A DNA stretch of 47,191 bases from positions 1 to 47,191 of the forward strand of contig JAZNNA010000011.1 of NCBI GenBank assembly GCA_045580065.1. Direction: 5' to 3'. Positions 4,775 through 19,734 of the stretch are shown one piece after another. Positions within the stretch are counted from its first letter, which is position 1. Every line of letters starts with the position of its first letter. Made by a program: the position numbers and the translations under genes. Source of the stretch: Eubacteriales bacterium (GTDB lineage Bacteria; Bacillota; Clostridia; Oscillospirales; CAG-272). Below the pieces are notes generated by a model. It did no database searches and had not been told where the DNA came from. It worked only from the letters and a program-made list of their open reading frames with translations.

Positions 4775-4789
4775 GCTCTGTTCCCTCAA

Positions 4790-7165
4790 TTATTTTTTGA
4801 TAATACTTGTCAGATTGTACTGAATAGTCGCACCGGAGATCGCATCGTAGATGTTTTCGTAATCCGGGCCGTTTGCCGTCAGATTGACCGTAGTGTGATA
4901 GGTATCGGAAACGTAAATGTACTTGACGTTAGGCACCTTATTTACAAGATGATAGTCAACGGCATATTGCCAGCCGGCACTCTGATTGCCCTGCGCAGTA
5001 TAGCTGCGGAATGCCTCGGCAGTGTGCGGGAACCATACCACCGTGGGGTTGACACAATCATAGAACGGGATCTCACAGCCGATGTTGCCGTGGTGCGCCA
5101 CCTGTACCATATCCGATTGCAGATAACTGCCATACAGCGCTGCCATATAGCGGCTCTGGTTGCGGTTGGCATCTCCCGTCCACATCTGGGTAACGGGCTT
5201 TGCACCGGGGGCATCCTGGTTGGAAAGGTGGAAGCGAAGCACCGTGCAGGTATCGTTAGAGTTGTTGATGCGCAAGGGATTGAGATCCTCAAAGGTGGTG
5301 ATCACCTCGATCTCAAGGTTGGCAAGATGATATCTTTGGCCGGCATGTACCTTTACGTATTTAAAGCCGCCCGTCACCTTAGTCTGCAGGCCCTTGATGG
5401 CATTTGTGGAGCTTAAGTGCATCACACCGTCACGCACGGAATAGCAGGAGCTGAGCGACGGGAAGCTGCCAAGCAGATAATCCATTTTGACCTTTTTCGT
5501 TTGGCCGTAAGCACTCAAAAAGTCCTCAAACGCCTCGTAATGGTCGGAGTGAGAGTGCGTAACCACCCAAGCTGCAATGCGGATCGGATTTGTGGTGGAA
5601 ACCTCGGCCTTGGTGATCTCTTTGTGCAGACTGGAAAGAATGCTCCAGATCTTGGTATGGGTGGGCGCACCGTCGTTGCTTGCAAAGCCACCGTCAAACA
5701 GGATGAAGCTGCCGTCCTCAAGCGTGACCACGTAGCCCATACCAACGGCAGCGGAAACAAGCGGGATCGCGGTGGTCTTAGAGTCGGTCTTTTTTACGTA
5801 AGACTGCTTGGTAAGCAGCTTTTCGTCAGGCAGATAGGCGGTAGCAAGCGGCGTGGAGGTAATGCGGAAGTTGGGATCCACAAAATAATATTCGCCCTTA
5901 TCATAGGTGTAATCATCTGCAAAGGCAAACGCGTTATAGTTTACGTGCAGCACAACACCCTTTTCCTGATTGATAAAGGTGGAAAACAGGTTTTCGCCGG
6001 CGGTGGAGGAGGTCTGCAGCACATACCCCTCGGCCTTCAGCTTTTCACAATATGCGTTATAATTTTCGGCGTTGATGCCATCACCCTTATACAGATATTG
6101 CAAGGAGCTATCGTTGGCATCCATGGTGTTATACAGCTCAATGCCCTCGCCATCAGGCTTGGGGAAATCGGTGATCCAGTTCTCGTTGACGTACCCGCGC
6201 AGCGAAAAGCCGTTGGGAAACGCCACACAAGGCTGACCGGCATCGTCCGTAAAAACGGCAAGAGAGATCAGACCCTTGACAAGCTCCTGACAGGTCATCA
6301 ACGCAGCATCGCTGTAGGAGGTGCAAACGATATCCTCACTTCCCACAAAAAAGCCGTATTCGCACGCGCCAAGCTTTGCACGAAGCTCCTTGCAGGCCTC
6401 TCGATTGACGTAGCCCATCAAAAATTCCTTGGTGGACTTTTCACTTTTATCTGTGCGGATAGAAAATTTACCGGCCGAAAGACCAACCTCTCTTGCCGCA
6501 GTGGCAACCAGCTCATCAATAGCGATCACAGGGAAATCGCGGTGGTCGCCGCCTGCGGAGTGCACGTATTCGTGCACCACGGAGTCGTCAAGCTTGTCAT
6601 CGTAGATATAGCGGAAAAAGCTTTCGGTAGAGTTGGCAAGCACCACCATCTCCATCTCGTTTGCACTTGCCTTTTGGTGTACGGAAAGCGTGCTGCCGAC
6701 AGCGGCTCCGGCGGTGAGATAGGTATCGGAAAAATACTGCAGAGCCTGTACGGTAAGCAGCTGGCTGCTGCCCACGATCACGATCTTATTGCCGATCAGC
6801 TGAACGACAAAGCCGTCGCCCTTGATGGATTTATAAGCCTTTTGGCTTTCTTCCCTTTTTGTAAGGCCGATCAGGATCTCCGGGTCGGCAGCGGTGCTGC
6901 GCGTTTTATCATCGCTATTGGCGACAAGAGGAAGGCCGGTAGCACCCGAAAGCGTGTCTGCAAAATTTACAACGATCTTTTTGAGTGCTGCGATCTCACC
7001 GTAGCTTTGGGGGTATACCAACGCATACTCGGTAAGGTCGATATCCTGCCTTTTCTTGCTGCGCTTTACCTGATCCACCCTTTCGCTGCAAGCGGCGAAA
7101 ATAAGGGTTAAGGAAAGCAGCATAGCCGCGGCCAGAAGAAGGCAAACAACTTTTTTCATCTTCAT
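4790..7165 (-). CDS. Lipoprotein with C-terminal ComEC-type MBL-fold domain, paralog B of 5
   Basis: 791 aa. The start MKMKKVVCLLLAAAMLLSLTLIFAAC has the lipobox FAAC, and AAGGAG lies 7 nt upstream. HSHSDH is encoded at 5540-5557. It also carries MWTGDA and VAHHGNIG. It is collinear with the other four paralogs and shares WITDFPKPDGEGIELYNT. Confidence 0.8.
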   Translation of the reverse strand: MKMKKVVCLLLAAAMLLSLTLIFAACSERVDQVKRSKKRQDIDLTEYALVYPQSYGEIAALKKIVVNFADTLSGATGLPLVANSDDKTRSTAADPEILIGLTKREESQKAYKSIKGDGFVVQLIGNKIVIVGSSQLLTVQALQYFSDTYLTAGAAVGSTLSVHQKASANEMEMVVLANSTESFFRYIYDDKLDDSVVHEYVHSAGGDHRDFPVIAIDELVATAAREVGLSAGKFSIRTDKSEKSTKEFLMGYVNREACKELRAKLGACEYGFFVGSEDIVCTSYSDAALMTCQELVKGLISLAVFTDDAGQPCVAFPNGFSLRGYVNENWITDFPKPDGEGIELYNTMDANDSSLQYLYKGDGINAENYNAYCEKLKAEGYVLQTSSTAGENLFSTFINQEKGVVLHVNYNAFAFADDYTYDKGEYYFVDPNFRITSTPLATAYLPDEKLLTKQSYVKKTDSKTTAIPLVSAAVGMGYVVTLEDGSFILFDGGFASNDGAPTHTKIWSILSSLHKEITKAEVSTTNPIRIAAWVVTHSHSDHYEAFEDFLSAYGQTKKVKMDYLLGSFPSLSSCYSVRDGVMHLSSTNAIKGLQTKVTGGFKYVKVHAGQRYHLANLEIEVITTFEDLNPLRINNSNDTCTVLRFHLSNQDAPGAKPVTQMWTGDANRNQSRYMAALYGSYLQSDMVQVAHHGNIGCEIPFYDCVNPTVVWFPHTAEAFRSYTAQGNQSAGWQYAVDYHLVNKVPNVKYIYVSDTYHTTVNLTANGPDYENIYDAISGATIQYNLTSIIKK

Positions 7166-7203
7166 AGCTTTGCTCCTTTACAAAGATATAAATAGTTAGT
7201 TTA

Positions 7204-7232
7204 ATTATATCATCAAATCCTGCTTTTGGCAA
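7204..7232 (-). promoter_or_regulatory. Sigma-A promoter with extended -10 for paralog B (and probably A)
   Basis: Minus strand reads TTGCCA (7232-7227), 17-nt spacer, TATAAT (7209-7204), preceded by TG (TGaTATAAT). Confidence 0.6.
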
Positions 7233-7305
7233 GCGGTACGGTGCGATGTTTGCTTTCTCTTCACTTTTTTCGCCGTTTTTCACAATTGCCAAATTCACTT
7301 TTCGG

Positions 7306-7341
7306 CATTTCGCGCAAAAAGGGCAACGGGAAAATTCCCGT
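7306..7341 (-). terminator. Rho-independent terminator after paralog C
   Basis: GGGCAACGGGA (7312-7322) / TCCCGTTGCCC (7327-7337), a perfect 11-bp stem. A T-run follows on the minus strand (rc of 7307-7311). Confidence 0.8.
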
Positions 7342-7354
7342 TGCCCTTTTGATC

Positions 7355-9781
7355 TTATTTTTTGATGGCGAAAACGCCGTTGTGCGTAAGCTTGTTGAAC
7401 TCGGTGGTAGAAGCATCGAAAATGTTATCGTGGTCCGGGCCGTTCTTGGTAAGAACAAGCGTGATATAATACGCGTAGGTAGAGGCCTTATCACCGGAAA
7501 TATAAATATATTTCACGCTGGGCATCTCATACGCGATGTGCTGATCCACCTGGAACTGCCAGCCGTTATTCAGCTTTTCCCTGTTCATGTAGTTGTGAGC
7601 AGCCTTGGCACTATGCGGCCACCAAACGGTTTCGGGCTGCACCATATCGTAAAAGTCGATCTCAAGACCTACGTTGCCGTGGTGCGCGATCGACACCATA
7701 TCCGACTTCAGATATTCGCCGTACATAGCGCACATCACGCGGCTCTGGCGGCGGTTGGCGTCGCCCGTCCACATCTGCGTAACGACCTCGCTCGGGTTAT
7801 CCTTGTTGGTCATGGTAAAGCGCAGGACCGTGTTGGTATCGTTGCCGTCACACACACGCATGGGAGTGGTATCCGCCCAGGTGGTGATCACCTCGATCTC
7901 CAGGTTTGCAAGGTAATATTTTTGCCCCGTACGAGCCTTGATGAACTTAAAGCCACCCTTTACCGCATTTTGCATATTTGCAATCGTTTTGGCGGTTATG
8001 ACCTTACCGATATCGGTCGTGCAGGAATACTCCTGGGGGAAATTGCCGATCATATAATCGATCTTCAGCGAGCCGGATCTGCCGTTCGCCTCAGCCATCT
8101 TCATAAAAGCATTGTAGTGGTCGCCGTGTGCGTGCGTCAGGACCCAAGCGGCAATATGAACGGGGTTAGCGGAAGAAACGGGTCTGCCGGTGATCTTGAC
8201 CTTCAGGTTGGTCAGCCACTCCCACAGTCTGGTGTGCGTGTCGCCGTTGTCGCCCATAGCACCACCGTCAAATACGATAAATCTGCCGTCCTCAAGCACC
8301 ACCACGTAGCCAAGACCTACGGCCCCCTCGTAAAGCGGGATCGTGCTGATCATCGAGTCGGTCACCTTATCGTAAACGGGATTTTTGTTCAGCAGATTGC
8401 TGTCCGCAAGGCCGGCATCCTCCAGGGGGGTGGATGCAATGCGGAAGCACTCCTCAAAATCATAGCAATTGGTATCCTTGGTTTTTACCTTGGAATGCAC
8501 GTTGTCATACGCGGAAAATTCGTTTTTATGCTTATAAGCGTTGTACGCCACGTACAAAGAAACACCCTCTTTGTTGTTGACAAAGGTGGTAAAGATGCTG
8601 TCCTCTGCACTGCTTTGCATCAGCACGCTGTAGCCCTCGCTCTTCAGCTTTTCGCAGTATGCGTTGTAGTTGGCGGCATTGATCCCGCTGCCGGTATAGA
8701 GGAACTGCAGAGAGTTTTCGCCGTCCTCCACCGTGTTATACAGCTCGATCCCCTCCCCTTCAGGTCTGGGGAAATCGGTGATCCACTTATCATTTCCAAC
8801 GCGCACAAGGCGGAAGCCCTGCGGAAGCGCGACCGTAACGGTACCGTCCTCATTTTTCACGGTTGCCTCGGCCAGAATATCCATATAGGCGCCTGCCGCA
8901 TTGATCAGCAGCGTATCGTTCCAGGCTGTTACGTGGACCTTGTCGCCTTCTACCACCACGGCGTACTCGTTTTCGGCAAGGGTGGCAAGCAGTGCGCGGT
9001 TCTCCTCACGATCGGGATACCCAACCAAGATCTCTTTCTCAGCAGTTTCGCTATCCTTGATGATCGGGAACAGCTTTTCGCGAAGGCCGGTCAGGTCTAC
9101 CATCTTTTGCACCATATTATCAATGACAAGCTGCGGATGATCCTTGTACGGCCCTCTATGGCCGGTAGAGCTTGTGCCCATATAGGCGCCGGTCAGCATA
9201 CCAAGATGCGCCTGGTGCACAAAGGAGTAGTAGCCTTTTTCAGAATCTGCAAGCAGCGCCATCTCCAGGTTGTTTGCCGCAGCCTTTTTGTGCACGGAAA
9301 GCACGGTGCTTTCCTCGCCCTCGGCCACAAGATACTTTTCCTGGAAGTACTGCACTGCCATCAGCGTCAGCAGATTGGAGGAGCCGACGATGACGATCTT
9401 GTTTTCCGTTACCTGGATCAAAAAGCCGTCGCCCTTGATGGCGCTATGCGCCTTTTTGCTTTCCTCTCGACTGGTAAGGCCGATCAGGATCTCTTTATCA
9501 CCCTTATCGGTCGTGGCGCGATCTTCGGTACGTGCCCAATAATTTTCACCGGTCTTTGCGCTAAGGGCGGTGGCAAAATCAGCCATGGCCTGCGTGAAGG
9601 TAACGGTGTATGCCTCGTCGCTCATAGAATCGCCGTACACAACACCATAGTCGGTAACGTCTACCTCGACGAGCTTTTTGTTAAGCGTGACGTAGCCGTC
9701 CTTTTCGCTGCAGGCAGTAAACAAAAGCGCACAGCCAAGCAGCATGGACAAAGCAAGCAAAAGGCTTAGGATCTTTTTCAT
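7355..9781 (-). CDS. Lipoprotein with C-terminal ComEC-type MBL-fold domain, paralog C of 5
   Basis: 808 aa. The start MKKILSLLLALSMLLGCALLFTAC has the lipobox FTAC. HAHGDH is encoded at 8117-8134. It also carries MWTGDANRRQ, IAHHGNVG and WITDFPRPEGEGIELYNT. Confidence 0.8.
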   Translation of the reverse strand: MKKILSLLLALSMLLGCALLFTACSEKDGYVTLNKKLVEVDVTDYGVVYGDSMSDEAYTVTFTQAMADFATALSAKTGENYWARTEDRATTDKGDKEILIGLTSREESKKAHSAIKGDGFLIQVTENKIVIVGSSNLLTLMAVQYFQEKYLVAEGEESTVLSVHKKAAANNLEMALLADSEKGYYSFVHQAHLGMLTGAYMGTSSTGHRGPYKDHPQLVIDNMVQKMVDLTGLREKLFPIIKDSETAEKEILVGYPDREENRALLATLAENEYAVVVEGDKVHVTAWNDTLLINAAGAYMDILAEATVKNEDGTVTVALPQGFRLVRVGNDKWITDFPRPEGEGIELYNTVEDGENSLQFLYTGSGINAANYNAYCEKLKSEGYSVLMQSSAEDSIFTTFVNNKEGVSLYVAYNAYKHKNEFSAYDNVHSKVKTKDTNCYDFEECFRIASTPLEDAGLADSNLLNKNPVYDKVTDSMISTIPLYEGAVGLGYVVVLEDGRFIVFDGGAMGDNGDTHTRLWEWLTNLKVKITGRPVSSANPVHIAAWVLTHAHGDHYNAFMKMAEANGRSGSLKIDYMIGNFPQEYSCTTDIGKVITAKTIANMQNAVKGGFKFIKARTGQKYYLANLEIEVITTWADTTPMRVCDGNDTNTVLRFTMTNKDNPSEVVTQMWTGDANRRQSRVMCAMYGEYLKSDMVSIAHHGNVGLEIDFYDMVQPETVWWPHSAKAAHNYMNREKLNNGWQFQVDQHIAYEMPSVKYIYISGDKASTYAYYITLVLTKNGPDHDNIFDASTTEFNKLTHNGVFAIKK

Positions 9782-9813
9782 AAACGTATCTTCCTTTCAT
9801 AAGGGTTTTGTTT

Positions 9814-9842
9814 ATTATATCAATTTTCTTCTGTAAAGTCAA
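9814..9842 (-). promoter_or_regulatory. Sigma-A promoter with extended -10 for paralog C
   Basis: Minus strand reads TTGACT (9842-9837), 17-nt spacer, TATAAT (9819-9814), preceded by TG (TGaTATAAT). Confidence 0.6.
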
Positions 9843-9884
9843 GCGCACAAGCTGCACAACTCACAATTTTAAAAGATATATCAC

Positions 9885-9920
9885 AAAATAAAAGCGGCAG
9901 CGAGGCTTACTCGCTGCCGC
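9885..9920 (-). terminator. Rho-independent terminator after paralog D
   Basis: GCGGCAGCGAG (9894-9904) / CTCGCTGCCGC (9910-9920), an 11-bp stem with a 5-nt loop. TTTTATTTT follows on the minus strand. Confidence 0.8.
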
Positions 9921-9928
9921 CGGGATTT

Positions 9929-12391
9929 TTACTTTCTGGCTGCTACGTAATTGACCTTATAGAAATCGGTCACCGCGCAGTAGTCAACGGTTTTACCTGT
10001 CATCAGGTCGAAAACGCCGTCGTAATCCGGGCCGTTTGCGGTAAGCACCATGGTAACGTAGTGTGCGCTATACTTGGTGTCGCCGGACTTGTTGCCCGAG
10101 GTGTACAGATACTTAACAGTGTTGATCTTGTACATCAGGTGCTGGTCTACCTCGTACTGCCAGCCCTTGCCCTCGTTTGCGGGGTTGAGGTAAGAGGCAA
10201 CAGAACTTGCATTGTGAGGCCACCACACAACAGTGGGAGAGATCAGATCGTAGAACTCTACCTCACAGCCGGCGTTGCCGTGATGTGCCACGGAGGTCAT
10301 ATCCGACTTGAGGTAGCTACCGTACATGGCGCACATAAAGCGGCTCTGCCAACGGTTGGCGTCTCCCGTCCACATCTGGGTGATCTTCTGGCTTGGATTA
10401 TCCTTGTTGGTCATGGTAAAGCGCAGAACGGTGTTGGTATCGTTAGAGTTGTTGGTGCGGATGGGGTTGAGGTCCTCCCAGGTGGTAATGACCTCGATCT
10501 CGCAGTTTGCAAGATACAGCTTATCACCTGTGTGTAGCTTGACGTACTTAAAGCCGCCGCGGATCGAAGCTTTCAAGCTGGCCACCAGCTCATCGCTCAT
10601 AACATTCAGACCAGCGGCACCGGCATAAGAGCCCTCCTGGGTGGGAACGTTGGCAAACATATAATCCATCTTCAGCTGGCCGGAGCTGCCGTAGGTATCA
10701 GCCATACGCACAAATGCATAGTAGTGATCCCAGTGTGCATGAGTCAGCACCCAAGCAGCAATGTGAACGGGGTTAGAGGAAGATACGGCCTTGCCGGAAA
10801 TGCGCTCCTGCAGCATGCTAAGTGTGCTCCAAAGCACCTTGTGCTCGGCAGTTGCGGCATCGTCGTTTACACCGCCGCCATCAAACACGATAAATCTGCC
10901 GTCCTCAAGAGTCACAACGTAGGAAAGGCCTACTGCCTTGCTGTAGATAGGCATGGTAGTGATCATAGAATCGGTCTTTTTATCGTATGCGGGGTTTTTG
11001 GTCAGCAGAGTGCTGTCTGCAAGGGTAACGGAATCAAGAGGTGCGGAAACGATACGGAAGCAGGGATCCTGCTCGTAATAGCCCTTATCACCGGTTTCGT
11101 CCTTGGAGTCGGTGTAGCTATAGGCAGAAAACTCATCTCTGTGCTTAAACGCATTGTAGGCCACGTACAGAGTAATGCCCTCCATACGGTTTACAAAGGT
11201 GGTGAACAGGCTGTCCTCAATGCTGTTTTCGCTGAGGATGCTGTAGCCGGCAGCCTTCAACGTATCGCAGTAGGCCTTGTAGGAGGTGGCATTTACGCCG
11301 TCGCCCATATACAGGTACTGCAGCGCATTGTCAGAAGCATCCATCGTGTTGTACAGCTCAATTCCCTCGCCCTCGGGCTTGGGGAAATCCGTCTTCCAGT
11401 CCTTATCGACGCGTCCGGAAAGGCTAAGGCCGATGGGAAGCGAAACGCTCTTGTCCTCGGCGGTGCCTTCTATGAGCAAATCAATGTACTCGGTAACGGC
11501 GCCCTTTACGGTAACGTCGTTCCAGCCGGTGACCTGGATCTGATTTTCCTGCACGGTGATCCTGTACTGGTCATCGGCAAGCGTAGCAAGCAACGCCTTG
11601 TTCTCGTCGCGCGCTACCACACCCACAAGAACCTCTTTTTCTGCGGTATCACTATCCTTTTCGATCTTAAACGCCTTATCGCGCAGGCCGGTCTGAGCCA
11701 CCATCTTCTGCACGATCAAGTCGATCGCGACCTGTGGATAGTCCTTATACGTGCTGTTAGCAAGAGTAGAGCCGGAAACACCCTTGTAAACGGGGGGGAG
11801 GATACCAAGCGATGCATCGTGAACGTAAGAGAAGTAGGATTCTTCGGCATCGGCAATGGTCACACTCTGCATTTTAAAGGCCTGTGCCTTTTGGTTGATG
11901 GAAAGCTCGGGATTGACCTTTTCGCTGTCGGAGAGGTACTTATCGGCAAAATACTGCACAGCCTGCAGAGTAAACAGGTTGGAGCTACCAACGATAACGA
12001 CCTTTTTGTCAGTTACCTCAATGGCAAAGCCATCGCCCTTGATAGAGTTGTAAACCTTTTTGCTTTCCTCGCGGTTGGTAAGGCCGATCAGGATCTCCTT
12101 GTCGCCCTTATTGGTCTTTGCGCGGTCTACGCTATAAGCAACAAAGCTTTCGCCGGTGGCCTTGTTCAGCATAGCGGCAAAATCAGACATACGCTCTTTA
12201 AAGGTAACGGTATAGTCATTGCCTGTCATAGAATCACCGTAAACCAGACCGTAATCGGTCAAATCCACTTTGACCTGCTTTTTGCTGAGCTTGACGTATC
12301 CATCTCTTTCGCTGCAGGCGGAAAGAATGAAGGTCGTGCTTACCAGCATCAAAAGCGCCAGCGCAAGACTGAGAATTTTTCTCATCTTCAT
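9929..12391 (-). CDS. Lipoprotein with C-terminal ComEC-type MBL-fold domain, paralog D of 5
   Basis: ORF 9929..12472. The preferred start is ATG 12391 (MKMRKILSLALALLMLVSTTFILSAC; lipobox LSAC) with an AAGGAG RBS. The upstream ORF extension would run through the promoter. The HxHxDH variant HAHWDH is encoded at 10725-10742. It also carries MWTGDANRWQ, VAHHGNAG and WKTDFPKPEGEGIELYNT. Confidence 0.8.
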   Translation of the reverse strand: MKMRKILSLALALLMLVSTTFILSACSERDGYVKLSKKQVKVDLTDYGLVYGDSMTGNDYTVTFKERMSDFAAMLNKATGESFVAYSVDRAKTNKGDKEILIGLTNREESKKVYNSIKGDGFAIEVTDKKVVIVGSSNLFTLQAVQYFADKYLSDSEKVNPELSINQKAQAFKMQSVTIADAEESYFSYVHDASLGILPPVYKGVSGSTLANSTYKDYPQVAIDLIVQKMVAQTGLRDKAFKIEKDSDTAEKEVLVGVVARDENKALLATLADDQYRITVQENQIQVTGWNDVTVKGAVTEYIDLLIEGTAEDKSVSLPIGLSLSGRVDKDWKTDFPKPEGEGIELYNTMDASDNALQYLYMGDGVNATSYKAYCDTLKAAGYSILSENSIEDSLFTTFVNRMEGITLYVAYNAFKHRDEFSAYSYTDSKDETGDKGYYEQDPCFRIVSAPLDSVTLADSTLLTKNPAYDKKTDSMITTMPIYSKAVGLSYVVTLEDGRFIVFDGGGVNDDAATAEHKVLWSTLSMLQERISGKAVSSSNPVHIAAWVLTHAHWDHYYAFVRMADTYGSSGQLKMDYMFANVPTQEGSYAGAAGLNVMSDELVASLKASIRGGFKYVKLHTGDKLYLANCEIEVITTWEDLNPIRTNNSNDTNTVLRFTMTNKDNPSQKITQMWTGDANRWQSRFMCAMYGSYLKSDMTSVAHHGNAGCEVEFYDLISPTVVWWPHNASSVASYLNPANEGKGWQYEVDQHLMYKINTVKYLYTSGNKSGDTKYSAHYVTMVLTANGPDYDGVFDLMTGKTVDYCAVTDFYKVNYVAARK

Positions 12392-12443
12392 AGCAATTCT
12401 CCTTAATAGATAAAATAAACCGATCCACTCGGTTTGTAGCCCC

Positions 12444-12472
12444 ATTATACCACCTTTCGGTTTTGAATGCAA
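12444..12472 (-). promoter_or_regulatory. Sigma-A promoter with extended -10 for paralog D
   Basis: Minus strand reads TTGCAT (12472-12467), 17-nt spacer, TATAAT (12449-12444), preceded by TG (TGgTATAAT). Confidence 0.6.
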
Positions 12473-12550
12473 GTAAAATCAGGACTGTTCACTTTTTTGC
12501 AAAACTTTTTGGTTTATTTGACAAATTCCTCTTTCAAATTTTGTAAATTA

Positions 12551-12584
12551 CAACAAACAAAGGGGAAGGCGCGCGGCCTTCCCC
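12551..12584 (-). terminator. Rho-independent terminator after paralog E
   Basis: GGGGAAGGC (12562-12570) / GCCTTCCCC (12576-12584). TTTGTTTGTTG follows on the minus strand. Confidence 0.7.
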
Positions 12585-12599
12585 TTTGTAGGCGGTTAC

Positions 12600-15014
12600 T
12601 TATTTTTTAACCGAAACCGTACCGTCATACGGGATCAGCTCGCCGGTCTTAAGGTCATATACCTCATCGAAGGCGGGGCCGGTCTTGCGCAGCTCAAGCA
12701 CGGTATAGTATTTGTCGTTGGTTCCCTTTGCATCGCCGGATACAAAGATGTACTTTACGCTGGGAATGTTGTTTACAAAGTGCTGGTCGACCTCGTACTG
12801 CCAGCCTCTGCTGATGTTTGCAGGGGTGGTATACATCTTGTAAGCACTCATGTTGTGCGGCCACCAGATAGCGGTGGGAGAAACAAGATCATAGAACTCG
12901 CACTCAAGACCGAGGTTGCCGTGGTGAGCCACGGAAACCATATCGGCATCAAGGTAAGAGCCGTACATAGCGCAAAGATAGCGGCTCTGCCAACGGTTGG
13001 CGTCGCCCGTCCAGATCTGCACGTTCTTTTCGTTGGGGTTATCCTTGTTGGTCATGGTAAAGCGCAGAACGGTGTTGGTATCGTTAGAGGTATAGGTGAC
13101 GCGGGGATTCAGATCCTCCCAAGTGGTCAGGACCTCGATCTCAAGATTGGCAAAGTAGAACTTCTGGCCGGTATGCACCTTGATGTACTTGAAGCCGCCC
13201 TTGACAAGAGATTGCCAGTTTTTGATGCTCTGCTCCGTGATGCCGCCCGAGCCGTGTGCCCAGTGGGTATATGCAGCAAACTCGTTGGGGTAGTTACCAA
13301 AGAGGTAATCCATCTTCAGGGTGCCGTTTTGGCCGTAGCGGGAAAGCACGCGATTGAATACGTAGAAGTGGTCGCCGTGGGGGTGCGTTACGATCCAGGC
13401 TGCGATATGTACAGGGTTGGAGGCGGAAACGGCCTTGCCGGTGTACTTTTCCTTCAGATCCTTCATTACGCCGTAAAGACGAACGTCCTCGTCGCCGGTG
13501 TTTTCGCCCATATTACCGCCGTCAAACACGATAAATCTGCCGTCCTCAAGCATGATCACGTAGATCAGACCAACGGCGTTGCCGTGCAGAGGCATGGTTG
13601 CGATCGCAGCATCGGCGATCTTATCGTAGGGCTGCTTTTTGAGGATCTTGTCATCGGGGAGCGTGACGGAGCTGATGGGAGTGGATACGATACGGAAGCA
13701 CTTTTCAAAGTCGTACCAGCCGATATCGCCGGTCTTGACCTTGGAAGCCTTGCTTGAGTATGCGGCAAACTCGTCCTTATGCGCATAAGCATTGAAGGAC
13801 GCATAGATCGTATGGTTCTTTTTCTGGTTGACAAGCGTTACAAAAACACTGCCCTCCACTTCGCTCTCGGTAAGAACGGTGTAGCCCTCACCCTTCAGGG
13901 TGTTGCAGTAGGCCTTGAGAGCATCGGCGGTCACGCCGTCGCCCATGTAGATATACTGCAGCGAGTCGTCGGTGGCGTTCATGGTGTTGTACAGCTCGAT
14001 CCCCTCGCCCTCGGGCTTGGTGAAATCGGTGATCCAATCCTCGTTTACTGCGCCCGTGTAGGTAAAGCCAACAGGCAGAGCAATGACCTTATCTGCGGTC
14101 ACAGCCTCGGCAAGCAGATCAATGTAGGTATCAACGCAAACGTCAAGCGCGTCGGTGCACCAGGCGTTCAGAACGACCTGGTTCTCCGTTACGTTAAGAA
14201 TGTACTGGTCCTCGGCAACGGTGGCGCGCAGCGCAACGCTCTCCTCGCGGTCCACGACGCCTACCAACACCTCTTTTTCGGCATTCTCGGTATCGGTAAT
14301 GGTGGAGAAGGCTCTTTCGCGAAGGCCGGAAAGCTTGGCCATCTGCTTTACGATATTTTCGGCAGCCACAACGCAGTAATCGCGGAAGTCACCGGAAACG
14401 CTTGCATAGTCTGGGCACTTGGGATCGGTTCGAAGTCCGTCCTGGAACACGTAAGAGAAATAGCTGCTTTCAGTATCGGCAAGCACGGTGGTGGCCATCT
14501 GGTTTGCCTTGGCGGACTGGTTGATCTGAAGCTTTGCTTCAGGCTTTTCCACCACGTTAAGGAAGGTGGTCTTAAAGTACTCTACCGCCATCAGCGTGAA
14601 GACGTTGGAAGAGCCCACGATCACGATCTTGTTTTCAGTCACCTGAATGGCAAAGCCATCGCCCTTGATGGAATTGTAAGCCTTTTTACTTTCTTCGCGG
14701 TTGGTAAGGCCAATAAGGATCTCCTTGTCGTTCTTACCGGTCTTTGCGCGGTCCTCGGTCTGGGCGATAAAGCCCTCACCGGTGGCAGCGGAAAGCGCAG
14801 TAGCAAAATCTGCCATTTTTTCTTTATAGGTTCTGGTAAATTCGTTTTCGCTCATCGAATCGCCGTATACCAGCGCGTACTCAGAGAAATCGACCTCTAC
14901 CTTTTTGCCGCTCAGCTTTATCTCTCCTTTTTTCGCACAGGAAGAAAAAAGCACGGCGCCGCCTGCCAGCATCAGCACTGCAAGCAGAAGGCTTAAAACT
15001 CTCGTCTTTTTCAT
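12600..15014 (-). CDS. Lipoprotein with C-terminal ComEC-type MBL-fold domain, paralog E of 5
   Basis: 804 aa. The start MKKTRVLSLLLAVLMLAGGAVLFSSC has the lipobox FSSC. HPHGDH is encoded at 13368-13385. It also carries IWTGDANRWQ, VAHHGNLG and WITDFTKPEGEGIELYNT. Confidence 0.8.
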   Translation of the reverse strand: MKKTRVLSLLLAVLMLAGGAVLFSSCAKKGEIKLSGKKVEVDFSEYALVYGDSMSENEFTRTYKEKMADFATALSAATGEGFIAQTEDRAKTGKNDKEILIGLTNREESKKAYNSIKGDGFAIQVTENKIVIVGSSNVFTLMAVEYFKTTFLNVVEKPEAKLQINQSAKANQMATTVLADTESSYFSYVFQDGLRTDPKCPDYASVSGDFRDYCVVAAENIVKQMAKLSGLRERAFSTITDTENAEKEVLVGVVDREESVALRATVAEDQYILNVTENQVVLNAWCTDALDVCVDTYIDLLAEAVTADKVIALPVGFTYTGAVNEDWITDFTKPEGEGIELYNTMNATDDSLQYIYMGDGVTADALKAYCNTLKGEGYTVLTESEVEGSVFVTLVNQKKNHTIYASFNAYAHKDEFAAYSSKASKVKTGDIGWYDFEKCFRIVSTPISSVTLPDDKILKKQPYDKIADAAIATMPLHGNAVGLIYVIMLEDGRFIVFDGGNMGENTGDEDVRLYGVMKDLKEKYTGKAVSASNPVHIAAWIVTHPHGDHFYVFNRVLSRYGQNGTLKMDYLFGNYPNEFAAYTHWAHGSGGITEQSIKNWQSLVKGGFKYIKVHTGQKFYFANLEIEVLTTWEDLNPRVTYTSNDTNTVLRFTMTNKDNPNEKNVQIWTGDANRWQSRYLCAMYGSYLDADMVSVAHHGNLGLECEFYDLVSPTAIWWPHNMSAYKMYTTPANISRGWQYEVDQHFVNNIPSVKYIFVSGDAKGTNDKYYTVLELRKTGPAFDEVYDLKTGELIPYDGTVSVKK

Positions 15015-15051: not shown

Positions 15052-15080
15052 ATTATAACATTAATGTTATTCTTGTGCAA
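15052..15080 (-). promoter_or_regulatory. Sigma-A promoter with extended -10 for paralog E
   Basis: Minus strand reads TTGCAC (15080-15075), 17-nt spacer, TATAAT (15057-15052), preceded by TG (TGtTATAAT). Confidence 0.6.
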
Positions 15081-15255
15081 GTTTTTTACTTTTTTTGCTT
15101 TAAATTTCATTTTGTTGCACAATTTGTTCAACTGGATTTTGGCATTTCACACAATAAAAGCAGTCTTTTCTCGGCTTGCATATTTGTATTTTTGAAAACG
15201 CCATGCCCTCCCCTTTCTTTTTTACAAAAAATGCAGAAAGCTGCCGCTTTCGCTC

Positions 15256-15284
15256 TTGACAGTTGGGGCGTTAAATGCTATAAT
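15256..15284 (+). promoter_or_regulatory. Consensus sigma-A promoter for alaS
   Basis: TTGACA (15256-15261), exactly 17 nt, TATAAT (15279-15284). The leader to the alaS ATG is about 30 nt. Confidence 0.65.
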
Positions 15285-15320
15285 AAAGGTTGTATTATTT
15301 TAAGGAAAGGCTTATTGGCT

Positions 15321-17966
15321 ATGAAATGGACTTCTCTTAACGAGCTGCGCGAAAAATATCTTGCATTTTTTGAAAGCAAGGGACATTTGCGCCTCCCCTC
15401 TTATCCGCTTGTTCCCATCAACGACAAATCTCTGCTTCTGATCAACTCCGGTATGGCACCCATGAAAAAGTTCTTTACCGGTGAGGAAGAGCCGCCCCGC
15501 AACCGCGTGACCACCTGCCAGAAGTGCATCCGTACCCCCGACCTTGAGCGCGTGGGTCACACCGCTCGCCACGGCACGTTTTTTGAGATGCTGGGCAACT
15601 TCTCCTTTGGAGATTACTTCAAAAACGAGGCCATTCCGTGGGCTTGGGAGTTTCTGACCAAAACGCTTGAGATCCCCGGCGAGCTGCTCTGGCCCTCTGT
15701 TTACGAGCAGGATGACGAGGCCTTTGAGCTTTGGAATAAAGTGATCGGCGTTCCCGCCGAGCGCATCACCAAGCTTGGCAAGGCCGATAACTTCTGGGAG
15801 CATGGCACCGGCCCCTGCGGCCCCTGCTCCGAGATCTATTTTGACCGCGGCATCAAATACGGCTGCGGCTCGCCTGACTGCCGCCCCGGCTGCGATTGCG
15901 ACCGTTTTATGGAGATCTGGAACAACGTGTTCTCCCAGTTCAACAACGACGGCAACGGCAATTACACCGAGCTTGCACAAAAAAATATCGACACCGGCAT
16001 GGGCCTGGAGCGTCTTGCGTGCGTGATGCAGGGCGTGGACAATATGTTTGAGGTGGACAGCATCCGCAAGATCCTGGATACCGTTTGCCAGATCGCGGGC
16101 AAGACCTACGGTGCTGACAAAAACAACGATATCTCTATCCGTGTTTGCACCGACCATATCAAGAGCTCGATGTTTATGATCGCCGACGGCGTTATTCCCT
16201 CTAACGAGGGCCGCGGCTACGTTCTGCGCCGCATCATCCGCCGCGCCTGCCGCCACGGTAAGCTGCTTGGCATCGATCACCCCTTCCTTTCCGAGCTTTG
16301 CGTGGTCGCCATCGGCGAGAATAAGGATGCTTACCCCGAGCTTGCCGAAAAGCAGGATTACATCCTGAAGGTGATCTCGATGGAGGAGGAGCGCTTCGCC
16401 GCCACCATCGACGCCGGCCTTTCTATCCTTTCCGGCATTATTGAAGAAACCAAGTCCGCAGGCAAGACCACCGTTGCAGGCGAGGACGTATTCAAGCTTT
16501 ACGACACCTTTGGCTTCCCGCTTGATCTGACCAAGGAGATCGTTGCGGAAAACGGCCTTGAGATCGACGAGGATACCTTCAAGACCCTGATGACCGAGCA
16601 GCGTGAGCGTGCCCGCGCCGCACGCGGCAATATCAGCGGCTGGGACAACGCCACAAAGAACCTGCTTGGCGAGCTGCCTCAGACCTCCTTCCGCGGCTAC
16701 GACAGCTTCCGCTCCGATGCAGCTACCGTGCTTGCCATCATCGTTGAAAACGAGGACGGCGCCCAAAGCGTTGACGAGATCAGCGAGGGCGACTGCACCG
16801 TGATCCTGGATAAGACCGTATTCTACGGCGAGGGTGGCGGTCAGGTCGGCGACCGCGGTACCATCTCGGCAGATGACGTTTTGCTGAACGTGCGCGACAC
16901 CAAAAAGACTGACGGCATTTATCTGCACCTTTGCACCGTTGCCGGCGGCGTGCTGCACGTAGGCGACAAAATTTGCGCTCGCATCGACGAGGATTACCGC
17001 AACACCATCGCCCGCAACCACTCTGTTGCTCACCTTTTGCAGGCAGCGCTGCGCCGCGTGCTTGGCAATCACGTAGAGCAGGCAGGCTCTCTTGTTGACG
17101 GCGACAAATGCCGCTTTGACTTTACCCATTTTGCTGCCCTTACCAAGGAGGAGATCGAAAAGATCGAGGCCCTGGTCAACGAGCAGATCTTCGCGGGCCT
17201 TCCCATCACGATGACGGAAATGCCGCTTGACGAGGCTAAGAAGCTTGGCGCTATGGCTCTGTTTGGCGAAAAGTACGGCAAGACCGTACGCGTGGTGCGC
17301 ATGGGCAACTTCTCCACCGAGCTTTGTGGTGGTACCCACATTGACAACACCGCGCGCATCGGTCTGTTTAAGATCACCTCCGAAACCTCGGTTGCTGCAG
17401 GCGTTCGCCGCATCGAGGCTTGCACCGGCACCGGCGTTCTGAAGCTGCTTGAGGCTAAGGATCGCCTGCTTGGCGATACCGCCACCGCCCTCAAGGCACA
17501 AAACGTGGCTGACCTCACCAAGCGCGCCGTGGCTCTGCAGGAGGAGCTGAAGGCCGCTCACCGCGAGCTGGATGCCCTGAATGCAAAGCTGGCCGGCTCC
17601 AAAAAGCAGGATCTGCTTGGCAATGCCAAGGCGGTTGGCGCCATCAAGCTGGCGGTTGCCCGCTTTGACGGCATGCAGCAGGACGTTGCAAGAAGCCTTG
17701 CTGACGAGGTAAAGGCAGAATGTGCCGATACCGTTGCCGTAATCGCCACGGTAAACGGTGCCGACGTTAAATTCCTTGCCGTTGCAGATAAGGATGCCGT
17801 TGCAGCCGGCGCTCATGCAGGCAAGCTGGTAGGCGCGGTTGCAGCCGTGACCGGCGGCAAGGGCGGCGGACGTCCCGACAACGCTATGGCCGGTGGCCGC
17901 GAGGCTGCCAAGGTTGACGAGGCTTTGGCAAGCGCTGCTGATGCACTGGCAGCTCAACTGAAATAA
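15321..17966 (+). CDS. alaS: Alanine--tRNA ligase
   Basis: ORF 15075..17966. The real start is ATG 15321 (MKWTSLNELREKYLAFFESKGHLRLPSYPLVP), giving 881 aa. It has class II AlaRS core motifs, the editing-domain HxxxH (HSVAHLL) and CGGTH, and a C-terminal DHHA1-like tail. The 5-prime ORF extension covers the promoter. Confidence 0.95.
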   Translation: MKWTSLNELREKYLAFFESKGHLRLPSYPLVPINDKSLLLINSGMAPMKKFFTGEEEPPRNRVTTCQKCIRTPDLERVGHTARHGTFFEMLGNFSFGDYFKNEAIPWAWEFLTKTLEIPGELLWPSVYEQDDEAFELWNKVIGVPAERITKLGKADNFWEHGTGPCGPCSEIYFDRGIKYGCGSPDCRPGCDCDRFMEIWNNVFSQFNNDGNGNYTELAQKNIDTGMGLERLACVMQGVDNMFEVDSIRKILDTVCQIAGKTYGADKNNDISIRVCTDHIKSSMFMIADGVIPSNEGRGYVLRRIIRRACRHGKLLGIDHPFLSELCVVAIGENKDAYPELAEKQDYILKVISMEEERFAATIDAGLSILSGIIEETKSAGKTTVAGEDVFKLYDTFGFPLDLTKEIVAENGLEIDEDTFKTLMTEQRERARAARGNISGWDNATKNLLGELPQTSFRGYDSFRSDAATVLAIIVENEDGAQSVDEISEGDCTVILDKTVFYGEGGGQVGDRGTISADDVLLNVRDTKKTDGIYLHLCTVAGGVLHVGDKICARIDEDYRNTIARNHSVAHLLQAALRRVLGNHVEQAGSLVDGDKCRFDFTHFAALTKEEIEKIEALVNEQIFAGLPITMTEMPLDEAKKLGAMALFGEKYGKTVRVVRMGNFSTELCGGTHIDNTARIGLFKITSETSVAAGVRRIEACTGTGVLKLLEAKDRLLGDTATALKAQNVADLTKRAVALQEELKAAHRELDALNAKLAGSKKQDLLGNAKAVGAIKLAVARFDGMQQDVARSLADEVKAECADTVAVIATVNGADVKFLAVADKDAVAAGAHAGKLVGAVAAVTGGKGGGRPDNAMAGGREAAKVDEALASAADALAAQLK

Positions 17967-17972
17967 AAGCAA

Positions 17973-18000
17973 GGGGATCGCCGCGGGCGATCCCCTTTTC
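17973..18000 (+). terminator. Rho-independent terminator of alaS
   Basis: GGGGATCGCC (17973-17982), loop gcg, GGCGATCCCC (17986-17995), then TTTT. It begins 7 nt after the alaS stop. Confidence 0.85.
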
Positions 18001-18009
18001 ACTTTCATA

Positions 18010-18410
18010 AAAAAAGCACCCGCAATTAGCGTGTTCTCCTTAACGGAGAACACGCTAAAACTAAGTTTGCCCTTATGGGCAAGTGAAGTTTACTTCGTAA
18101 GTGAAGTTATCCTGCGGATAGTGAAGTTTTGCCTTTGGCAAAGTGGGCAAACTTAACTTCACTGCGAGCCCCTGTGAGCAACTTCACTGTGCGTAGCACA
18201 ACTTCACTTTCGCAGTAGCGAAAACTTCACTAACAGAAAAAGAGCAGACACATAAGGTCTTTTCCCCCTTGCGTGTTTGCTCTTTCTGCTTGTATAAGGG
18301 TTTGGGCTTAGCCCATTTGCATTTGACCAGTCAAATGCGATGCTCGCACTTAACGGTGTTTTCCAAATTCTCCGCTAAGAGCATCACCCATTCTCTGCGG
18401 GTGCTTTTTT
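18010..18410. other. Highly structured ~400-bp noncoding element: candidate large structured RNA, or a MITE-like insertion in a terminator loop
   Basis: The outer 14-nt arms AAAAAAGCACCCGC (18010-18023) and GCGGGTGCTTTTTT (18397-18410) are perfect complements. Inside are a 12-bp hairpin (18028-18039/18045-18056), the repeat ladder at 18082-18231, hairpins at 18241-18251/18273-18283, 18304-18314 and 18319-18338, and a pairing of 18339-18345 with 18379-18385. No ORF of 60 aa or more is present. Confidence 0.5.
18082..18231. repeat. Inverted ladder of 9-nt repeats: 3x AGTGAAGTT followed by 4x AACTTCACT, alternating with mini-hairpins
   Basis: AGTGAAGTT occurs at 18082-18090, 18100-18108 and 18120-18128. 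Its reverse complement AACTTCACT occurs at 18155-18163, 18180-18188, 18200-18208 and 18223-18231. The spacers are self-complementary mini-hairpins of unrelated sequence: 18091-18099, 18109-18119, 18129-18141, 18188-18200 and 18209-18222. Confidence 0.8.
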
Positions 18411-18414
18411 GATA

Positions 18415-19734
18415 TCAATAATTATCGCGCTGAGCCTTGGAGCGGAACAGGTTCATGATGCGATCAAAATCATCGGTGTCGTCCTTTTCTTCTTCAGCGG
18501 TGTTAATGGAAGGTGTGTGTGACACGGGGGCAGGCTCCTGCACGGGAGCGACCGGTGCCGCGGGAGCCACGGGAGCCACGGGAGTTGCGGGAGCCACGGG
18601 AGCCACGGGAGTTGCAGGTGCCACGGGAGCCACGGGAGTTGCAGGTGCCACGGGAGTTGCGGGAGCGACAGGAGCCACGGGTGCTGCCGGTGCTACGGGA
18701 GCTACGGGTGCCATAGGAGCTGCAGGGGCAGTGTGTGCTACGGGCGCGATCTCCTGAATGGGAGCAGGCAGCTCGTCGCTTTGCTCAAAGCCGGTTGCAA
18801 TAATGGTGACGCGCATTTCGTCGTCGAGGTTGTTATCAAAGGCAAGACCCCAGATCACGTTTGCATCGGGATGAGCTTCCTTGGAGATCATAGAGGATGC
18901 AAGATCCACATCCTCAAGTCCCACGTCGGGAGAAGCAGTGATGCTGATCAGAATACCGCGTGCGCCGTGGATAGAGGTTTCAAGCAAGGGGCTGGAGATA
19001 GCAGCGCGCGCTGCAAGCTCAGCCTTGTCGGTGCCGGTGGCACCGCCCACGCCCATGTGCGCATAGCCTGCGTTTTTCATAACAGAGGTCACGTCGGCAA
19101 AGTCAAGGTTAATAAAGCCGGGGACGTTGATCAGCTCAGAAATGCTTTGCACACCGCGACGAAGCACGTCGTCGGCGATCTCAAAGGCATTGCCAAGGGT
19201 AATGCGAGTATCGGACACCTGCTTTAACTTTTCATTGGGAATCACAACAAGAGAGTCTACGTACTGGCGGAGCTCCTTGATACCGCGCTCTGCCTGCTCC
19301 ATACGGCGCTTGCCCTCAAAGCTGAAGGGCTTGGTAACGATACCAATGGTAAGAATGCCCATTTCGCGAGCCACTCGTGCCACAACGGGGGCTGCACCGG
19401 TGCCCGTGCCACCGCCCATGCCGGCGGTAACAAACACCATATCAGCACCTGCAAGTGCGGCCTTGATCTCATCGATCGATTCCTCTGCTGCGCGCTCGCC
19501 CACCTCGGGATTTGCGCCTGCACCAAAGCCGCGGGTGATCTTTTCGCCGATCACCATCTGAGTGGGAGCCTCGGATTTGCGAAGCGCCTGACGGTCGGTA
19601 TTTACGGTAATGAATTCTACGCCGCGGATATTGGCGGCGATCATACGGTTAACGGCATTGTTTCCGCCGCCACCGACACCGATCACTCGGATCGCTACGC
19701 CACTTTCAAAACTATTATCTACTTCAAAGGTCAT
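18415..19734 (-). CDS. ftsZ: Cell division GTPase FtsZ
   Basis: 439 aa. It carries the tubulin signature [13 protein letters not shown], the N-terminal [17 protein letters not shown], a long Pro/Val/Ala linker and a C-terminal [10 protein letters not shown] peptide. Confidence 0.95.
18541..18747 (-). repeat. In-frame tandem repeat encoding the FtsZ C-terminal linker, (A/T)PVAP(V/A) units
   Basis: The DNA consists of iterated GCCACGGGAG / GTTGC(A/G)GG units. They encode [57 protein letters not shown]. Confidence 0.85.

Follow-up and report, generated by a model that had tools for sequence, protein, structure and literature searches.

The locus described here raises the question of what a ladder of short words, first in one orientation and then in the other and separated by mini-hairpins, represents between two convergent genes. 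The window, i.e. the whole stretch of DNA analyzed, comprises 47,191 nt from an Eubacteriales bacterium of the CAG-272 lineage (GenBank assembly GCA_045580065.1, contig JAZNNA010000011.1). The ladder region is the 448-nt spacer between alaS (15075-17966, + strand) and ftsZ (18415-19734, - strand); murG and ftsW follow beyond ftsZ, and the setting is a chromosomal cluster of division and cell-wall genes. Our analysis identifies the ladder as the middle part of a conserved unit of about 370 nt, bracketed by the two halves of a split terminator, and its left half as the RNA motif Gut-1 (Rfam RF01706). The feature is real and conserved. Two points are solid: the ladder adds a genome-anchored member to the Gut-1 family, and Gut-1 is itself part of a larger dispersed, self-folding unit. 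The motif was already catalogued with its function unknown; its inverted array, its position in terminators and its association with a gene are mentioned neither by Weinberg et al. (2010) nor in any paper that our searches retrieved. Our best reading, with a probability of about 0.6, is a dispersed, self-folding element similar to the intervening sequences (IVSs) of rRNA and acting as + strand RNA, of which the window holds a gene-less copy of about 370 nt in the loop of the ftsZ terminator. How such a unit moves, and what RNA processing, protein binding and benefit to a host may go with it, we infer from the comparisons below.

Gut-1 as one arm of an inverted ladder

A first-pass annotation, made from the letters alone, had not recognized the ladder as any described RNA family and had proposed an Rfam/Infernal search. 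This search corrected the assignment. The + strand carries a Gut-1 match that spans the whole model (positions 1-77; window 18058-18132) with 54.6 bits against a gathering score of 50. The three helices of the model align to the hairpins hp0 (18067-18082), hp1 and hp2, and the linkers, GUGAAAU in the model, are AGUGAAGUU here. On the minus strand the right half (18232-18176) yields another match, Gut-1-like and below threshold (30.7 bits, E-value 5e-4). Other sub-threshold Rfam matches in the region (MIR156, DUF2800, RsaD, RT-17 and others) were treated as noise.

Gut-1 was described as a probable non-coding RNA known from human-gut metagenome sequence only, with no function proposed (Weinberg et al. 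2010, PMC2864571). Both there and in Rfam its linkers are modelled as unpaired and the motif is classed as a small RNA (sRNA). The flanks in the Stockholm alignment of the 2010 study reveal a two-armed design that is not mentioned in the paper: in BAAZ01000095 three copies of GUGAUAUU with hairpins are followed by four copies of AAUAUCAC with hairpins.

In the window, exact copies of the word AGTGAAGTT are located at 18082, 18100 and 18120 (+ strand) and those of its reverse complement at 18155, 18180, 18200 and 18223, in full agreement with the first reading. No further exact copy was found in the 47-kb window, and three one-mismatch matches elsewhere are at chance level. For an exact 9-mer, chance would give about 0.36 matches over both strands of the entire window, compared to seven observed within 150 nt. 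The mini-hairpins in the spacers at 18091-18099, 18109-18119, 18129-18141, 18188-18200 and 18209-18222 have the form first described. The spacer at 18164-18179, which had been noted as poorly self-complementary, indeed has three closing pairs and is actually a direct repeat (GCGAGC/GTGAGC). Likewise, the reported complementarity of AAGTTTGCCC (18063-18072) to GGGCAAACTT (18145-18154) was recovered. The hairpin hp0 and a degenerate reverse word (18150-18158) are additional features.

The complete unit, an inserted long-form element on the + strand (18025-18395), shares 75-85% identity with units at eight other loci in unrelated contexts (L171, L218, L219, L227, L223, L143, L122 and L198; L-numbers are the labels of compared loci). 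It opens with a 5' hairpin (18026-18058, +) whose 14-bp stem, TTAGCGTGTTCTCC / GGAGAACACGCTAA, is conserved or covarying in other copies. Within the Gut-1 match, AAGTTTGCCC is the 5' strand of a stem that we term P0 and pairs either locally, in hp0, or distally with 18145-18154. The forward array (18082-18128, +) contains the three AGTGAAGTT words with hp1 (18091-18099) and hp2 (18109-18119) and is followed by hp3 (TTGCC-ttt-GGCAA, 18129-18141, +) and by the distal 3' strand of P0 (18145-18154, +), which overlaps the degenerate reverse word. The reverse array (18155-18231, +) consists of four copies of AACTTCACT, with the weak hairpin at 18164-18179, hp5 (18188-18200) and hp6 (18209-18222) as spacers. 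A long-form 3' domain (18232-18395, +) with hairpins at 18239-18285, 18303-18315 and 18319-18338 completes the unit, and its segment 18368-18379 is complementary to 18039-18050.

After the first of these 3'-domain hairpins, a conserved motif, GTTATAAGG (in the window TTGTATAAGG, 18286-18300), has equivalents in L171, L218, L219, L143 and L122. On the + strand it looks like an extended -10 box and was not called by the promoter scan; as an active promoter it would yield an RNA of about 110 nt ending at the terminator T-run.

Distribution and common architecture

A scan of one genome per species with a pattern of three GTGAAGTT words resulted in at least 119 loci; about 95 of these 119 carry ladders with palindromic spacers, the remainder being unrelated tandem repeats. 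The carriers are almost all metagenome-assembled genomes (MAGs) of gut or rumen Clostridia, namely Oscillospiraceae, Acutalibacteraceae, Christensenellaceae, Ca. Scatosoma and Ruminococcus. At least 11 assemblies are represented by two or more contigs, there are several copies per MAG, and the two copies at L152 are similar to each other. Matches of the scan in Acidobacteria, Planctomycetota and Bacteroidales were set aside as coding or tandem repeats because their spacers are identical and non-palindromic. In viral contigs a degenerate three-word pattern retrieved only two real ladder loci, L020 and L092, and otherwise AT-rich tandem repeats. The phage-like contig L092 has two ladder copies in opposite orientation between structural genes. 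A match to the Rfam GP20-b RNA at 4684-4743 of this contig confirms its phage origin. A blastn search of the 416-nt region against phages and plasmids gave no match.

In the orientation of the window the order of parts is polar. A long variable hairpin is followed by hp0 (AACTAAGTTTGCCC-loop-GGGCAA), three forward words with hp1 to hp3, AGTG..GGGCAAACTT, and four reverse words with hp4 to hp6. The spacer lengths are conserved (about 10, 12 and 21 in the forward part and 15, 8 and 15 in the reverse part) and their sequences vary. Ladders mostly lie downstream of genes, with 23 in convergent, 22 in co-directional and 5 in divergent surroundings. Head-to-tail tandem units were seen in BAAZ01000130.1 of the Weinberg alignment (four matches 240 nt apart), in L367 (1057-1345, two matches 213 nt apart) and in L193 (3176-3541). 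These suggest amplification by slippage or recombination besides dispersal.

Selection on structure

The mini-hairpins differ in sequence from copy to copy and keep their ability to fold. Counted without an alignment, 396 spacers comprising 275 distinct sequences close with at least three Watson-Crick pairs in 88% of cases, versus 2.3% after shuffling. In a MAFFT alignment of 31 oriented copies, 95% of the cells in hp0 to hp3 are paired and 13 pairs are changed on both sides; none of 500 shuffles reached the observed level, and controls with slid partners were 29-50% paired. The early suggestion that hairpins of divergent sequence reflect selection on structure is thus borne out by strong compensatory changes.

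The pairing of forward with reverse words has an ensemble probability of 0.93 and is also predicted by RNAalifold. The rod of forward:reverse helices that was proposed at first is therefore thermodynamically dominant; as a functional fold it is rivalled by the equally conserved P0 stem, which would enclose the forward array and compete with word pairing. AAGTTTGCCC fits the local GGGCAA of hp0 as well as it fits the distal GGGCAAACTT of P0, and one T-to-C / A-to-G double change is shared by both pairings. The same triple arrangement recurs in unrelated sequence at L370 (ATATCCGTTCC / GGAACGG / GGAACGGATAT) and L367 (GAAATAAATCC / AGGATTT / GGATTTATTTC), and at L197, where the forward array is missing, a triloop caps the P0 stem directly. 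For the ladder of the window the computed energies are -39 kcal/mol for the rod with mini-hairpins, -36 kcal/mol for P0 with hairpins and approximately -18 kcal/mol for hairpins only, the last with the hp0 helix set one base off. The minimum free energy of -69.7 kcal/mol is owed to cross-arm pairing of spacers. Such cross-arm pairing was rejected as a selected feature, since spacers of one element pair no better with each other than with those of other elements (p = 0.42).

Subfamilies use different words (GTGAAGT, GTGAAAT, GTGATAT, ATGATAT, TCGATAT and TTATTCAT), and the partner word always changes to match. This complementary change is equally expected from one motif used in two orientations. 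Within the subfamily of the window the words are invariant and hence offer no internal covariation for forward:reverse pairing. Two loci bear on this point. At L225 each position has its own word, and these heterogeneous words are complementary in nested order; at L375 there is a plain long hairpin without mini-hairpins. Both argue for genuine word pairing.

The fold is also asymmetric between the strands. Interior mismatches of the mini-hairpins on the Gut-1 strand are G.T in seven cases and A.C in none. The consensus energy of the 3' domain is -40.4 kcal/mol on the + strand versus -33.5 on the - strand, with conserved G.U pairs on the former. Together, mismatch pattern and modelled energies point to a ladder that acts as a single-stranded + strand molecule, RNA or possibly single-stranded DNA (ssDNA), and argue against a purely duplex-DNA role.

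Insertion into a terminator loop

Similarity among the long forms runs from AGCGYG in the 5' hairpin to CATCACCC. Outside these ends an A-run and a stem are located on the left, and the complementary stem and a T-run on the right, and the stem differs per locus. In the window the left arm (18010-18024) is an A-run followed by GCACCCGCA and the right arm (18396-18413) is TGCGGGTGC followed by a T-run; neither arm of this bidirectional ftsZ terminator is assigned to one strand. Corresponding split stems are AACGCGAGGGAA / TTCCCTCGCGTT at L171, GGCGAAAGCAC / GTGCTTTCGCC at L218 and TGCCGAGAGGA / TCCTCTCGGCA at L219, and split-terminator flanks are also present at L223, L184 and L195. Each pair of flanks represents a bidirectional intrinsic terminator cut in two.

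Empty sites are provided by four related genomes with convergent ftsZ and alaS, FtsZ proteins 77-91% identical to that of the window, and spacers of 89-124 nt. Each of these spacers contains two intact terminators, the ftsZ-side one with a loop of 3-4 nt. The layout of the window matches that of the four relatives apart from the ftsZ-side hairpin, which the unit interrupts; the intrinsic terminator of alaS (17971-17997, +, 12-bp stem) lies next to the element and outside it, and is intact.

Loci homologous to the unit of the window were considered as orthologous alaS-ftsZ loci and rejected, as none has alaS or ftsZ nearby. A metagenome scan with the terminator stem listed unrelated terminators sharing GCACCCGCA, none of them with ftsZ or alaS. 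Related species have empty sites; within a species no filled/empty polymorphism was found. As an observation in its own right, the terminator stem AAAAGCACCCGCA...TGCGGGTGCTTTT occurs in more than 120 unrelated gut-metagenome contigs (L247-L366) with few loop sequences, e.g. GGCTCAGCGTC and GATAAATC, and is shared remarkably widely.

Linkage to a four-helix-bundle gene

At five loci (L152, L149, L191, L206 and L182) a ribosome-binding site (RBS) and a start codon follow within about 25 nt after the last reverse word. The gene encodes a 23S_rRNA_IVP / four-helix-bundle protein (PF05635, TIGR02436). A four-helix-bundle paralogue at L158 is preceded by a TCGATAT / ATATCGA ladder and one at L225 by the ladder of heterogeneous words, and at L197 the gene is located between a reverse array and a forward array. 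From the protein side, an exact-word ladder was found just upstream in 4 of about 12 distinct viral-contig loci, with ladder variants in L373 and L375. Gut-1 matches above the Rfam threshold lie upstream of the gene at L367 (twice), L370 and L152. The gene order at L373 and L374 is tRNA-Leu, ladder, RBS and gene, with neither terminator nor promoter in between.

The family was found nine times in 856 kb of ladder loci, compared to no occurrence in 948 kb of control gut contigs and none in 1.09 Mb of other viral loci. A ladder detector based on 7-mers gave no match in the 948-kb control, and a 6-mer version was too noisy on controls. The window itself contains no four-helix-bundle gene. A search of the literature on Gut-1, PF05635 and TIGR02436 retrieved nothing on the ladder or the gene link, and PADLOC assigned the four-helix-bundle proteins to no defense system.

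Some of these loci show further features. At L152 the four-helix-bundle gene is followed by one (1061-1960) for a protein with a helix-turn-helix (HTH) and a T5orf172 (GIY-YIG-like) domain that matches the PADLOC candidate defense family PDC-S57 (E-value 1e-90); the same gene pair is present in L149. Another conserved module, GGRCAAATGTTGCTTTCGAGCAAA...TTTACAGCAGTTTAGTA, was found at L158 (minus strand), L191 and L152 (near 3280). It comes after the four-helix-bundle gene or directly after the ladder, and at L158 both after a GTGAAGTT ladder and after the gene stop; this layout gives the impression of a gene lost from between the two. tRNA-like 3' ends (GGTTCGAATCC...CCA) lie just upstream of terminator, ladder and gene at L370 (about 1200-1240) and L375 (about 1280-1305). 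ARAGORN calls no tRNA there, and these ends may be attachment-site remnants of prophage integration. At L376 (1395-1435) the four-helix-bundle gene is preceded by a tandem repeat, CAATTGACAATTGACAATGGACAATGGACAATTG, instead of a hairpin ladder.

Proposed mode of action

We propose that the unit works as a single strand, most likely as + strand RNA. The spacers would fold into mini-hairpins and the forward words GUGAAGU would pair with the reverse words ACUUCAC, or, in an alternative conformer, AAGUUUGCCC would pair with the distal GGGCAAACUU. In either conformer the insert would collapse to a compact rod that brings both its ends together. With the ends brought together the host terminator stem could still form, and the insertion would thus be tolerated. 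The logic of this tolerance would be the same as that of IVSs in hairpin loops of rRNA. In the relatives that carry a gene, the fold would be located at the 5' end of the four-helix-bundle message and may serve as a processing or stabilizing structure, possibly as a substrate of RNase III; the ladder could also be a binding array for the encoded protein.

Several findings weigh against this interpretation. An exact empty site with the identical stem GCACCCGCA was not recovered among the matches listed and the FtsZ of the window is not on record; in the genomes that provided empty sites, FtsZ is no more than 77-91% identical and the terminator stems are different. At the aligned ends (AGCGYG... 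...CATCACCC) there are no terminal inverted repeats (TIRs), no target-site duplication and no conserved target word, and no transposase-like neighbor recurs among the flanking open reading frames (ORFs), which leaves mobility without a known mechanism. No convincing promoter was found for the element, and on the + strand it sits behind the strong terminator of alaS. Word pairing is separable from one motif used in two orientations only via L225 and L375. The link to the gene holds for only about one tenth of the ladder loci and about one third of the four-helix-bundle loci sampled. In L367, L370 and L225 a promoter-like site lies between ladder and gene, and the ladder may therefore not belong to the mRNA of the gene at these loci.

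A more far-reaching version of the IVS-like reading is speculative, and we regard it as possible and rather doubtful. Gut-1 ladders might be the cis module of unrecognized, IVS-like selfish cassettes that encode an Avd-like four-helix-bundle protein recognizing the words specific to its subfamily, the copy in the window being a gene-less derivative. Such cassettes might insert into host hairpin loops (terminators, sites downstream of tRNAs, rRNA helices) and ride on host transcription. Word pairing might restore the host hairpin and release or stabilize the message of the cassette. Stand-alone four-helix-bundle "23S rRNA IVS proteins" form a very large family for which we know of no role. If the cassette hypothesis were true, the orphan motif Gut-1 and the orphan family TIGR02436/PF05635 would account for one another. 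Gut-1, an orphan since 2010 and known from metagenomes only, is now placed in assembled genomes of Clostridia and in contigs of phages. The motif makes up one half of an inverted ladder with two arms, whole units are located in terminator loops, four related genomes keep the terminator intact at this site, and some copies directly precede four-helix-bundle genes. Taken together, these findings merge two entries of unknown function into one testable hypothesis on protein-RNA recognition, RNase III processing and hairpin-loop insertion. They also draw attention to a way in which terminators may tolerate large insertions.

Alternative explanations

The ladder could instead be a stand-alone sRNA or protein sponge, whose hairpins display single-stranded GUGAAGU linkers as sites for an oligomeric RNA-binding protein, e.g. 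a pentameric Avd-like one. In a variant of this explanation the linkers pair in trans with ACUUCAC arrays, and the inverted array is a second, convergently transcribed copy. The modelling of the linkers as unpaired and the classification as sRNA in Rfam and by Weinberg et al. (2010) agree with it, as does the Gut-1 match on the minus strand. Each arm, read in its own GTGAAGT sense, presents the same module with pyrimidine-rich triloops (TTC, TGC, TAC), with four or five word-plus-hairpin modules per array. The invariance of the words within a subfamily suggests sequence-specific recognition, and four-helix-bundle genes are linked to ladders. However, the probability of 0.93 for pairing on the same strand makes free linkers unlikely if the whole unit is transcribed, and the G.U asymmetry favors one strand for both arms. 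Furthermore, no promoter is conserved at either end, and RNA binding by stand-alone four-helix-bundle proteins is without evidence. On balance we consider the sponge improbable.

A comparably low probability is given to a non-autonomous transposable element, similar to miniature inverted-repeat transposable elements (MITEs) or PATEs, that is moved as ssDNA by a transposase from elsewhere, with hairpins as recognition structures and terminator loops as targets. In its favor, a genome has several scattered copies that resemble one another, they sit in terminator loops, and relatives have empty sites. Elements of the IS200/IS605 type likewise lack TIRs and target duplications, have subterminal hairpins and are strand-asymmetric. 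The idea of the first-pass annotation that the repeats are the ends of a miniature non-autonomous element comes close to the context found here. Against a transposon of the IS200/IS605 kind speaks the variety of the left flanks, which end in ATT, AAT, TTT, TAT, CTT or GAA without a conserved target word. No transposase-like gene recurs among the neighbors, the tandem arrays (L367, BAAZ01000130) indicate slippage or recombination, and the recurrent cargo is a four-helix-bundle protein rather than a nuclease or recombinase.

An array of duplex-DNA sites, like iterons or operators, whose words are bound by a sequence-specific protein that regulates the four-helix-bundle gene or organizes the DNA, is still less probable. 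The convergent words of 7-9 bp recur at a spacing of about 18-25 bp, close to two helical turns; they are identical within an element and specific per subfamily, and at L367, L370 and L225 the ladder is located just upstream of the promoter-like site of the gene. Binding to a duplex would not require that spacers of unrelated sequence keep their hairpins by compensatory change, nor does it account for mismatches that are G.T and never A.C in a strand-asymmetric fold, for the nested-order complementary words of L225 or for the plain long hairpin of L375. Iteron-like sites, an early suggestion for the ladder, are disfavored also by its position in terminators rather than near replication or partition genes, none of which is nearby, and by the lack of plasmid and phage matches. 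Most copies, including the one in the window, have no adjacent gene to regulate. Among the rivals it fits worst with the covariation of the hairpins and the asymmetry between the strands. A local repeat that arose by chance or is decaying, with no conserved role, has a negligible probability and is refuted by the seven 9-mers within 150 nt (chance would give about 0.36 in the entire window), the same covarying architecture at about 95 loci in many genomes and the match to a curated Rfam family.

Other features of the window

Five large ORFs of about 790-850 aa follow each other head to tail on the minus strand at 2381-15014 (2381-4789, 4790-7165, 7355-9781, 9929-12472 and 12600-15014). Three of them were compared to Pfam; two had no match and the third had weak matches only. 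They may form a tandem array of paralogous proteins whose function is unassigned. The mechanically derived alaS ORF (963 aa, GTG start) opens about 80 codons ahead of the tRNA-synthetase domain (window 15075-15320), which indicates that the true start is probably near MKWTSLNELREK. Upstream of alaS neither a T-box nor any other Rfam family was found at the gathering threshold.

Comparison with known systems

The closest relative is Gut-1 itself. The full-model match, three covarying hairpins, GUGAAAU-like linkers, the gut Clostridia as carriers and the reverse-complement array downstream in the flanks of the authors' own alignment are shared. The published motif differs in that it comprises the forward array only and is an orphan sRNA from human-gut metagenomes only. 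Neither the Weinberg et al. (2010) paper nor the Rfam model contains the reverse arm of the ladder, P0 as an alternative pairing, or the 5' hairpin and 3' domain of the long form. Both are also silent on the split terminators around the units, on copies in MAGs and phage contigs, and on four-helix-bundle genes as neighbors.

Arrays of plasmid and phage iterons and centromeres (parC, and tubC with 3+4 repeats) resemble the ladder in their clusters of three and four repeats with a spacing of about two turns. In contrast to these, the ladder is convergent and strand-asymmetric, its spacers are covarying hairpins, and it has no rep or par genes and no plasmid or phage matches. REP/BIME, BOX, Correia/ERIC and MITE elements are, like the ladder unit, short, non-coding, multicopy and self-complementary, and mostly located downstream of genes or between convergent ones. 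The single-stranded-looking words are conserved and the hairpins variable in the ladder, whereas the reverse is true for REP. The ladder also has no TIRs or target duplications and sits specifically inside terminator loops.

Phage T7 carries intercistronic hairpins that are processed by RNase III. The L092 copies between structural genes, and the ladder of L373 and L374 that separates a tRNA from a four-helix-bundle ORF, are reminiscent of these, although there is no sequence or structural homology and cleavage of the ladder would be putative, by analogy only.

The IVSs of 23S rRNA are extra self-pairing segments at the tips of rRNA hairpins, with a long stem that joins their ends; some have an ORF of the 23S_rRNA_IVP family inside. 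In the ladder unit the arms do not form a continuous stem but are arrays of short words with mini-hairpins in between, and excision by RNase III is putative. The unit of the window lies between alaS and ftsZ and not in 23S rRNA, and the 23S_rRNA_IVP ORF is absent from the window and adjoins related ladders. As in an IVS, insertion has taken place at the apical loop of a host hairpin, which here is a terminator instead of an rRNA helix, and the ends would be brought together at its tip. Relatives of the unit carry PF05635/TIGR02436 genes, and at L197 such a gene lies between complementary arrays in the same way as the ORF lies inside an IVS.

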